A DNA stretch of 44,113 bases from a virus (lineage: Duplodnaviria; Heunggongvirae; Uroviricota; Caudoviricetes). The DNA is taken from the IMG/VR virus record IMGVR_UViG_2630968800_000004; one strand, given 5' to 3'. Position 1 is the first letter of the stretch, and every line of letters starts with the position of its first letter. The position numbers and the translations under genes are program-made. The notes beneath the pieces are model-generated. The model searched no databases. It was not told the origin of the DNA and saw only the letters and a list, made by a program, of their open reading frames with translations. Shown here piece after piece: positions 30,385 to 33,077 of this stretch.

Positions 30385-30448
30385 TGAGGTAGCCTGAGTT
30401 TAACGGACACTCCTTCCTGAAATAGAATGGCATCAGAAGGAGCTAATA

Positions 30449-30751
30449 ATGAGCAGAAAAACCCAACGTTACTCTAAATAGTTCAAAGCCGAAGCTGTCA
30501 GAACGGTTCTTGAAAATCAACTTTCGATCAGTGAAGGCGCTTCCCGATTATCTCTTCCTGAAGGCACTTTAGGACAATGGGTTACCGCCGCCAGAAAAGG
30601 GCTCGGTACTCCTGGTTCCCGCACGGTGGCTGAACTGGAATCTGAAATTCTGCAACTGCGTAAGGCGTTAAATGAAGCTCGCCTTGAGCGCGATATATTA
30701 AAAAAAGCAACAGCGTATTTTGCACAGGAGTCGCTGAAAAATACGCGTTAA
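30449..30751 (+). pseudogene. IS600 orfA with nonsense mutation (codon 10 GAG to TAG)
   Basis: ACTCTAAATAGTTC versus ACTCTAAAGAGTTC in the other copies. Confidence 0.8.
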
Positions 30752-30786
30752 TCGAACAATGGCGACAACAATTTCCCATTGAAGCG

Positions 30787-31605
30787 ATGTGTCAGGTATT
30801 TGGTGTATCCAGGAGCGGTTATTACAACTGGGTACAGCATGAACCCTCAGACAGAAAACAAAGTGATGAGCGGCTAAAACTGGAGATTAAGGTGGCACAT
30901 ATCCGCACTCGCGAAACATATGGAACCCGGCGGCTCCAGACGGAGCTGGCAGAGAATGGCATCATCGTTGGTCGTGACCGACTGGCACGTCTTCGTAAGG
31001 AGCTGAGGCTACGCTGTAAGCAGAAACGCAAGTTCAGAGCGACTACGAACCCGAACCACAATCTGCCAGTTGCGCCAAATCTGCTGAACCAGACGTTCGC
31101 TCCTACAGCACCAAATCAGGTCTGGGTGGCGGACCTGACGTATGTTGCCACACAGGAGGGATGGTTGTACCTCGCTGGCATCAAAGATGTTTATACGTGC
31201 GAAATTGTCGGCTACGCCATGGGAGAGCGCATGACAAAAGAGCTGACAGGTAAAGCCCTGTTTATGGCGCTCAGGAGCCAGCGCCCACCTGCCGGGCTAA
31301 TCCACTACTCTGATCGAGGTTCACAGTACTGCGCATACGATTACCGGGTCATACAGGAGCAGTCTGGTCTGAAAACATCAATGTCGCGTAAAGGTAACTG
31401 TTACGACAACGCTCCGATGGAAAGCTTCTGGGGAACGCTGAAAAATGAGAGCCTGAGCCACTATCGTTTTAATAACCGGGATGAAGCCATCTCAGTAATA
31501 CGGGAATACATTGAGATTTTCTACAATCGTCAGCGTCGTCACTCTCGTCTGGGGAATATCTCCCCGGCAGCCTTCAGGGAAAAATATCATCAGATGGCTG
31601 CTTAA
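30787..31605 (+). CDS. IS600 OrfB
   Basis: 272-aa ORF. Confidence 0.8.
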   Translation: MCQVFGVSRSGYYNWVQHEPSDRKQSDERLKLEIKVAHIRTRETYGTRRLQTELAENGIIVGRDRLARLRKELRLRCKQKRKFRATTNPNHNLPVAPNLLNQTFAPTAPNQVWVADLTYVATQEGWLYLAGIKDVYTCEIVGYAMGERMTKELTGKALFMALRSQRPPAGLIHYSDRGSQYCAYDYRVIQEQSGLKTSMSRKGNCYDNAPMESFWGTLKNESLSHYRFNNRDEAISVIREYIEIFYNRQRRHSRLGNISPAAFREKYHQMAA

Positions 31606-31652
31606 AAAAAGAACAAATGGTAGTGTCCGCTATTGCCAGTACACCTCACAGG

Positions 31653-33077
31653 CTACCTCAAGGCAGCCAGTAATTTGTCTGCATCGACAGGATTTTTGGG
31701 CGGAATGTTTTTCCGGGCTTCATGGAGTTCTGCCCGTAGTTCCTGATATTTCTCATCAACAGAATTTACCTGTGACTGAGCATCCAGCGGCTGCGTGTTC
31801 TGATGATGTTCAGTTGCATCCGGTTCCATTGTTTCAGCCGTTGCCTGTTCATCTGCCATTGCGCCAGATGGCTGCGTTTTTTCTTCATCATCCTGTTTTC
31901 CTTCTTCTGTTACACGTTGCGGCATCGGGGCAGAGGAGCGACCGCAGGCAATATCCACGATTTCCGGATCAGGGTTGGCATGATCGGTTTCAGTCAGTAC
32001 CTTGTTCAGATATTCAGTGACGTGAGCGGGGATGACCTCGATACCAATCGGTGCTTCTTTCACTGACGCAACCACGATGGCGCGGGAATAATCCATCCCG
32101 CCAGGCATGGTGATGAATTTGTCGCGGAAAACAGAAAAGGGCGGTTTATTTTCAGCGATAATTTCCTCGACACGTTTAGCGTGTGCCGGATGAAGGTTAT
32201 AAATGTCCACGTCCATTGAACGAGCCAGTACGCCAGTGGCTACGTCGCGCGCCAGTGACGTCAGATCGTGAACGAAACCTTCGCCGCGATCGGTGAGGTT
32301 CCCGCCGCCAGCATTAGCGCCGGAAGCCGTGCGCGTGATGCGTGAAACACGATTTCCTTTCATCCACTCTTTTGTCAGCAGACCGCGATCGGTGTAGTCT
32401 GCGTCCATGTATGCTTCGAAAAAAGCAGTCATCAGCCCCAGGCTTGAATTGCCTGGATTAGGGAAAACTCTGTCAGTATCACGCACCAGTTTGTGGAGAT
32501 CGCGAATTTCCAGCGGATCGAGCAGGCTGGTTTTGTGGGAAACAGCCAGGGCAGTAACAGCTGGTAGTTCTTCATCCCGAGCAATGTGTAATGCCTGGAG
32601 TTCGTCGCGTGAAACGTGCGTTACTGGTTTTTCGCTGCCGTGTTGCGCAAGCCAGCGAATGGGCAGTTCCTGACCGGAAACTGGCAGGAGCATGTTCTCC
32701 TCAATTTCTGTCATGTCTTCGCCGTTGACGTTGGTATTGTCAGTGCTGGCCGGTTTGTCCTGAACAGAGGGAGAAGATGCGATAAATACCATTGTGATGC
32801 CATCTTCCCCGCCTTTTTCGTAACGGTTGCAGAATTCCGTATCAAATACGCCTTCTGGCGGGAGGTCATCAACAACGGGCAAATTGACGCGAACAGGTTT
32901 TTTAAAGTCATCTTCATCGTAGCCTGCATCGTCAATCGCAACAGCACCACGGGAGATGGCAATGGATAATTTTTTCGCTTCAGCCCAGTAAAAACCGCCT
33001 TTAATACCGAGACGTTTTCTTACTTTGTCATTTTTTGCTTCGTAATACAGTGGGTAAACTTGTTTATCGGTGTTCAT
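31653..33077 (-). CDS. Hypothetical phage-associated protein (474 aa); last codons and stop supplied by IS600-terminus-like sequence
   Basis: Long ORF with acidic/Gln-rich C-terminal tail; stop TAG lies inside the 12-bp IS600 end remnant. Confidence 0.45.

Follow-up and report, generated by a model that had tools for sequence, protein, structure and literature searches.

A 12-nucleotide inverted IS600 tip beside a defective IS600 copy in Shigella flexneri, the probable scar of a second element

Within a stretch of 44,113 nucleotides (the window), a complete copy of IS600 ends at position 31648, and directly against its right end lie 12 nucleotides that look like the terminus of the same element turned the other way. 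How does so short a piece of an insertion sequence come to stand outside an IS whose own ends are complete, and what has it done to the genes on either side? An earlier note on this DNA, made from the sequence alone, offered two answers: that a second, inverted IS600 had been almost wholly deleted, or that IS600 had inserted at a target resembling its own inverted repeat (IR). Here we weigh these and other readings against alleles without the insertion, other IS600 copies and other Shigella flexneri and Escherichia coli genomes.

Decayed lambdoid prophages form the groundwork of the window, which is a Shigella chromosomal island. It carries sitABCD-like ABC-transporter genes, phage integrase fragments, a tail-fibre gene, a Rha/Ash regulator and an IpaH-type NEL E3 ligase, together with copies of what we take, from recognition of their sequences, to be IS1, IS2 and IS629-like elements; proteins identical to those encoded here carry the Shigella flexneri label in public records.

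The IS600 copy and the sequence at its right end

Four full copies of IS600, each of 1,264 bp, lie in the window, at 437-1700 (minus strand), 11231-12494, 30385-31648 and 42361-43624, along with one partial copy at 18089-19037, and the pairwise identity of these copies is 99.4-100%. The third, which we call copy B (30385-31648, plus strand), starts with TGAGGTAGCCTG at 30385-30396 and reaches 31648 with ...GCCAGTACACCTCA, so that both ends (TGAGG...CCTCA) are complete. Its TG...CA termini, its imperfect terminal inverted repeats (9 of 12 bases are common to the two tips, left and right, the right-end tip being TGAGGTGTACTG), its domains and its near-identity to the three other full window copies (99.4-99.8% over 1,264 bp) mark it as IS600, the name also given in the RefSeq annotation of its homologues. 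We set the ends of the element at TG...CA because copies with intact 3-bp direct repeats define them: those at 11231 (CAG/CAG) and 42361 (GTT/GTT) in the window, and two in E. coli (CAT/CAT and CTG/CTG). The boundaries placed by the earlier note agree with these ends. Copy B itself has no such target duplication, its left flank being CTC and its right flank CAG, with AGG beyond the 12-mer; the window copy at 437-1700 has none either. The missing duplication points to rearrangement of copy B and is no argument against its identity as IS600.

Judged from its sequence, copy B has the architecture of IS600 with its coding capacity destroyed. Both orfA (30449-30751, plus strand) and orfB (30787-31605, plus strand; rve, HTH_21, rve_2 and rve_3 domains) are recognizable, as is the A7G frameshift motif. 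Codon 11 of orfA (30479-30481, plus strand) reads TAG, where other copies, such as that at 11231, have GAG; the same nonsense codon occurs in the copy at this locus in another assembly (L007). With orfA closed at codon 11, copy B would be unable to make OrfA or OrfAB. Neither this defect nor the absent target duplication figured in the earlier note.

The 12-mer, CAGGCTACCTCA at 31649-31660, directly adjoins the right end of copy B and is the exact reverse complement of IS600 nucleotides (nt) 1-12, the tip of the left inverted repeat (IRL), on the minus strand, letter for letter as had been claimed. The identity stops at 12, the 13th base being different. With up to one mismatch allowed, the window holds five occurrences of the 12-mer, where shuffles would give 0.21, and the remaining four occurrences are the left ends of the full IS600 copies; by simple arithmetic (4^-12), the chance that a specified exact 12-mer should abut an IS end is ~6e-8. 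The joint reads CCTCA|CAGG, with both CA dinucleotides kept, and no microhomology, the signature of the IS-excision enhancer (IEE) and microhomology-mediated end joining, is visible in the sequence there. BLAST alignments of some E. coli IS600 copies ran on into the 12-mer (to query positions 68-73), but four such loci, once aligned, had unrelated flanks, and the extensions were discarded as chance run-on.

Two altered genes and 503 missing base pairs

Across the 12-mer lies an open reading frame of 474 aa (31653-33077, minus strand) that resembles the N-terminal part of RecE. Its end reads GCT GCC T|TG AGG TAG, position 31661 being the last native base, so the frame consists of 472 native codons, a hybrid Leu codon and an IS-derived Arg codon and TAG stop. 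The Arg codon and stop come from IS600 nt 3-8, the TAG itself (31655-31653) being nt 6-8; the proposal that the 12-mer supplies the neighbouring gene's stop is thereby confirmed, TG-AGG-TAG being taken from the IS600 tip. The suspicion that the gene is 3'-truncated is likewise borne out by alignment with homologues, which run on past this point with ...LLAASRGEFVEG..., for a further 174 residues in a 646-aa form and about 405 in the 877-aa RecE. Among the best 120 of 7,586 homologues, none ends at the same residue with a stop of non-IS origin, the observation that the earlier note had named as counting against truncation; the sole 474-aa entry in that set is the same S. flexneri allele, and those contigs with the 474-aa allele that extend beyond the stop codon reach the same IS joint.

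The N-terminal region of the Exonuc_VIII family (PF06630) is found in the 474-aa frame at residues 52-189 (E = 9e-37), and this region is 96% identical to that of an 877-aa RecE, the best-known counterpart being RecE (exodeoxyribonuclease VIII) of the Rac prophage. Canonical RecE (L006) has its PDDEXK nuclease domain (PF12684) at residues 626-861; in a domain search this catalytic domain was missing from both the 646-aa allele and the 474-aa frame, so that, unlike exonuclease VIII, neither the truncated product nor its parent has a C-terminal PDDEXK domain. As the 646-aa form is without PF12684, the parental gene was already an N-terminal-only relative of RecE.

At the other end of copy B the IS cuts into gam, encoding a host-nuclease inhibitor (PF06064; 30090-30384, minus strand). 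The uninterrupted 646-aa gene overlaps the start of gam, and the G of the gam ATG in an uninterrupted allele (L001) corresponds to window position 30384; the A and T are gone, and the start codon now reads CAG, in which CA belongs to the IS tip. A gam frame of 106 aa opens at an in-frame GTG within IS600 (30410-30408), and gene callers give the length as either 106 or 86 aa. Downstream of gam, the AAA_24 ATPase gene (28987-30084, minus strand) belongs to the same prophage recombination module, a former operon now interrupted by 1,276 bp.

Alleles without the insertion define what has been lost. In E. coli VL7S7 (L001), positions 4080-5497 align with window 28967-30384 at 99.6% identity and positions 6001-7842 with window 31661-33501 at 97.6%, from which it follows that the 503 bp between them (5498-6000) have been replaced by IS600 and the 12-mer. 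An S. flexneri contig (L009) gives the same interval (1444-1946, with one mismatch from L001): its positions 1-1443 match window 33103-31661 with 0 mismatches, and its positions 1947-3374 match window 30384-28971 with six SNPs and a 14-bp indel. The exact points at which homology stops are 30384|30385 and 31660|31661; the final 174 codons of the 646-aa gene are thus gone from the window, together with the "AT" that opened the gam start codon. The 503 bp were not found elsewhere within the window, and a search of long S. flexneri contigs for a fragment encoding the lost 174 residues returned only pieces of the intact allele or an E. coli frameshift variant. The loss of 503 bp of host DNA and the destruction of the gam start codon by the left IS end had both gone unseen in the earlier note.

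At the break the uninterrupted alleles read ...GCTGCCT|CTCGCGGAG, and nothing like an inverted repeat or an IS600 end is present at this native site (...GCTGCCT|CTCGCGGAGAA...). Because the native site has no IR-like motif, the 12-mer is best read as derived from an IS and not as a pre-existing target; it matches the IS600 tip at 12 of 12 positions, lies between the IS and the point where homology resumes, and is missing from the uninterrupted alleles, as expected of an IS600 remnant.

The two junctions travel together. Ten complete S. flexneri chromosomes, the work of different projects, carry both without a single base difference, as do two further assemblies (L007 and L008), and two short-read drafts (L015 and L016) also carry the right junction; by locus, the 44-nt right junction recurs unchanged in 14 independent cases and the 38-nt left junction in 12, and every locus with the left junction also has the 12-mer junction. 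Among species-representative genomes, the right inverted repeat (IRR) followed by the 12-mer occurs in two, in both at this locus only, and neither junction is present in 5,426 complete E. coli genomes. Other S. flexneri strains keep an intact 646-aa allele with an identical 5' part. The check for the same junction in related strains that had been proposed thus finds it in the 10 complete chromosomes and in the four other assemblies, and its presence in so many S. flexneri assemblies indicates that the arrangement is fixed in a large lineage of the species. For the adjacent AAA_24 protein the index of the collection lists 1,603 blocks, mostly on contigs under 2 kb, as one would expect of a short unique stretch with IS copies on both sides.

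Origin of the 12-mer

We consider it very probable that the 12-mer is the scar of a second, inverted IS600 (copy A), otherwise deleted, to whose tip copy B became joined with the loss of 503 bp of prophage DNA; this reading, the first of the two in the earlier note, fits all the data. The gene concerned, RecE-N-terminal-like and 646 aa long when intact, belongs to a defective lambdoid prophage; copy A would have inserted, inverted, into codon 473 of this gene, the left tip of A lying against what is now 31661. The right terminus of copy B would then have been joined to copy A between nt 12 and 13, and its left terminus to the G of the gam start codon, with 1,252 bp of copy A and the 503 bp of prophage DNA disappearing between the two joints. 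Because both joints fall at precise IS termini, transposase chemistry was probably their maker.

As far as the sequence can tell, two orders of events would fit equally well. In order (i), copy B would insert into the left end of copy A at the target CAG (nt 10-12 of A), and a leftward deletion to gam would follow, either through an intramolecular attack of the left end of B or through homologous recombination between B and a further IS600 in direct orientation. In order (ii), copy B would insert first at the gam ATG, and its right end would then attack the left end of A intramolecularly, deleting the intervening DNA in one step. As a third possible order, homologous recombination between two IS600 copies could have brought together one joint from each. 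With no microhomology at the joint and no duplicate of the target triplet on the left side, the order is not readable from the sequence.

These steps predict particular intermediates: an intact inverted copy A at codon 473 would show the joint AACTCAGGCTACCTCAAGGCAGCC, copy B at the gam ATG, the 503 bp still in place (order (ii)), the joint CCAGTACACCTCACTCATCACTGGTCAC, and copy B nested in A with the body of A retained (order (i)) the joint GTTAAACTCAGTGAGGTAGCCTGAG. A synthetic junction query for the intact inverted IS600 at the recE site found it absent from the 5,426 E. coli genomes, only two of which have IS600 and recE pieces at one place, ~420-620 bp farther apart than in the query, and a metagenome scan for the junction of the IRL tip with recE gave 0 matches. 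An IS600 at the gam ATG next to an undeleted 503-bp segment had no example among the E. coli genomes or the loci with the left junction. That intermediate would be expected to encode a protein of ~641 aa ending ...VTSDE; S. flexneri entries of 641 and 642 aa (P0005 and P0017) were examined as candidates and turned out to be the intact allele cut short by contig ends. As no intermediate was found, copy A is something that we infer and have not observed.

The flanks diverge unequally from the S. flexneri contig (0 mismatches in 1,443 positions on one side, six SNPs and a 14-bp indel on the other), which suggests that they may come from different prophage copies joined by IS600 recombination and not from a local deletion. 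Copy B could, then, be a hybrid of two IS600 copies that had inserted at separate prophage loci, the first at a gam ATG and the second within an inverted IS600 in the recE-like gene, and were brought together by homologous recombination; the 503-bp deletion would be apparent, or part of a larger rearrangement, and the 12-mer would still be the scar of an inverted IS600. We think this unlikely, though it has some support: it would explain the absent target duplication, likewise wanting in the window copy at 437-1700, and it accords with the unequal flanks, seen also against E. coli VL7S7 (97.6% versus 99.6%), with the presence of the module at more than one place in VL7S7, and with a contig (L023) whose sequence stops 6 nt beyond the position of the junction, a hint that gam is repeated in that strain. 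It requires three IS600 insertions, however; long S. flexneri contigs hold no separate fragment for the lost 174 residues; and SNP markers inside copy B give no sign of a chimera, at the poor resolution that few informative sites allow.

Readings that dispense with a deleted second element fare worse. The 12-mer might have arisen as a 12-bp tandem duplication of the right tip, later converted to the left tip, or might be the outer end of a 1276-bp IS600 variant; the two tips already agree at 9 of 12 positions, and the composite has perfect 12-bp terminal inverted repeats. Either course is very improbable, as the 12/12 match to the left tip calls for three exact changes, no target duplication lies outside the 1276-bp unit (CTC versus AGG), and the IRR with the 12-mer is confined to one locus, with no other 1276-bp copies in the species-representative scan. 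The second answer of the earlier note, that IS600 inserted beside a pre-existing IR-like sequence in the recE-like gene as IS911 and IS30 can, is contradicted by a native site that is nothing like the 12-mer: homology returns only after the 12-mer, and the described joints lie outside the targeted tip, whereas this one lies 12 nt inside the IR, with the IR pointing away from the IS. Such targeting is known for IS3- and IS30-family elements (PMC9333248, PMC7986276), and some other IS600 right flanks weakly resemble ...C.CCTCA, but we hold it to be extremely improbable here. The chance that the joints are artefacts of assembly or sequencing at a repeat boundary is practically negligible: misassembly is common in IS-rich genomes, but these junctions recur without change at 14 and 12 independent loci, in 10 complete chromosomes from different projects and, for the right junction, in two short-read drafts.

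The scar of a deleted, inverted copy A thus being our preferred reading, the position of the joint within that copy invites one further conjecture. The IS600 transposase may prefer to attack inside the left inverted repeat of a resident IS600 at nt 12/13, a mode distinct from the next-to-tip targeting of IS911 and IS30. The position coincides with the second TGAG of TGAGGTAGCC-TGAG and may be where the catalytic tip gives way to the part that binds transposase. We put such a preference forward as a long shot; were it true, IS pairs lying head to head would collapse under attacks within the IR, with scars of 12 nt left behind.

IS600 activity and the decay of the prophage

Joints of this kind can be set beside two known behaviours of insertion sequences. 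As described in PMC9333248 and PMC7986276, IR targeting by IS911 and IS30 places the incoming end beside the targeted tip, in strict orientation, to give an abutted IRL-IRR junction, with a spacer of 2-3 bp according to the former (PMC9333248). Like IS911 (IS3 family) and IS30, the element here is of a copy-out-paste-in family and is joined to a resident inverted repeat of the same IS; unlike in those cases, the joint follows nt 12 inside the IRL without a spacer, and the targeted IR has its tip turned from the incoming IS, features that set this locus outside IR-targeted insertion of the IS911 or IS30 type. IS600 is also a substrate of IEE in E. coli O121 (PMC9397093), which works via microhomology-mediated end joining (PMC9943667). 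As in IS-mediated adjacent deletions, in which one IS end attacks intramolecularly, and in those promoted by IEE at the ends of IS3-family elements, the deletion begins exactly at an IS terminus; in contrast to IEE-promoted deletions, no microhomology was used at the joint.

The kind of event is already known: an IS scar with an IS-associated deletion in an IS-saturated genome, which is ordinary IS-driven decay. Shigella reference chromosomes carry 229-348 IS insertions each, IS600 is one of five IS expanded in all Shigella species, and the ancestor of S. flexneri underwent substantial IS expansion (PMC7373316). Given this load and the ancestral expansion, insertions of IS into IS, lost target duplications and IS-bounded deletions are to be expected. 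The locus shares with Shigella genome decay (PMC7373316) an expanded IS, interrupted genes, an absent target duplication, an adjoining deletion and fixation in a lineage, and differs from it in nothing material; what is particular to this case is that so short a remnant, 12 nt, provides a stop codon.

Beyond annotation the consequence is small. When an IS with no target duplication adjoins a few nucleotides of another copy, the pair is the mark of a deletion, as opposed to a simple insertion. The paired exact junctions form a stable, lineage-wide marker by which S. flexneri could be typed or the activity of IS600 in it dated, and the 474-aa 'exodeoxyribonuclease VIII' and the 106-aa 'Gam' of S. 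flexneri annotations are products of IS scars, to be treated as pseudogenes.

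IS600 at the recE-like locus and the start of gam

The IS600 copy between the recE-like ORF and gam (30385-31648, plus strand) is a non-autonomous fossil. Codon 11 of its orfA has become a nonsense codon (GAG to TAG; window 30479-30481, IS600 nt 95), and a second private SNP, at IS nt 169, is common to the copies at this locus in the window and in L007, another assembly with both junctions. At its left end (window 30385-30410, minus strand), an in-frame GTG lengthens the otherwise start-less gam to a predicted 106-aa ORF; public gene calls place the gam start either at this GTG, giving the 106-aa form, or at an internal start giving 86 aa.

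At the same locus, the IS600 of ECMA0423 and S. flexneri SFBU1023 carries a diverged patch over IS600 nt 400-824 (L007 about 5032-5456; L008 about 3833-4257), with 46 substitutions in 425 bp (~11%), stop codons included, while the window's copy has the standard IS600 sequence across this stretch. Either the window lineage was repaired through gene conversion from other IS600 copies, or ECMA0423 and SFBU1023 gained the diverged patch, or the patch is an assembly problem common to those two genomes.

Other IS600 copies and their flanks

Elsewhere in the window, the full IS600 copy at 437-1700 (minus strand) is also without a target duplication, its flanks reading AAG versus GGA, and has therefore also been rearranged. 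A partial copy at 18089-19037 (IS600 nt 316-1264) directly adjoins a 768-bp repeat at 17321-18088, which resembles IS1 and has two further window copies, at 8631-9388 (opposite strand) and 40882-41649. CAG/CTG is the flanking triplet in two of the four intact duplications (window 11228-11230 and 12495-12497; compared locus L005), and CAG recurs at the joint with the inverted 12-nt IS600 tip (window 31649-31651), with one further case in an E. coli right flank (L002). This recurrence may reflect a weak IS600 target preference, the sample being far too small to tell.

Variation across the island

Downstream of a DUF1187 gene, the intact-allele S. flexneri contig L009 terminates in an IS600-like left end whose tip has one mismatch (TGAGATAGCCTGAG...; 3634-3661), at the place where the window has an IS629-like element; locus IS insertions therefore differ between S. 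flexneri lineages. A group II intron reverse transcriptase (RVT_1 and GIIM) is inserted within the IS629-like region, ~1.5 kb past the AAA_24 gene, in some of the complete S. flexneri chromosomes (L026 6581-8089; L030 6565-8088); neither the window nor the remaining compared genomes carry it. The same IS-riddled prophage island holds an IpaH-type effector gene (LRR and NEL E3 ligase) at window 38680-40395 and, at window 22026-25475, a sitABCD-like metal ABC transporter, both on the minus strand.

The uninterrupted gene and its module

Uninterrupted (E. coli VL7S7, L001 5477-7417; L009 27-1967), the parent gene encodes a 646-aa protein in which the RecE N-terminal region is accompanied by a Cys-rich stretch (CNQTGEDNCPDCG) and by a C-terminus that is short and unique; the PDDEXK nuclease domain is absent from this protein. 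Gam follows, and then an AAA_24 ATPase where RecT would stand; the corresponding module in the window spans 28987-33077. This arrangement of 646-aa gene, Gam and AAA_24 occurs widely across E. coli and Shigella, where annotations often label it truncated RecE, and it may constitute a distinct recombination module rather than a pseudogene.
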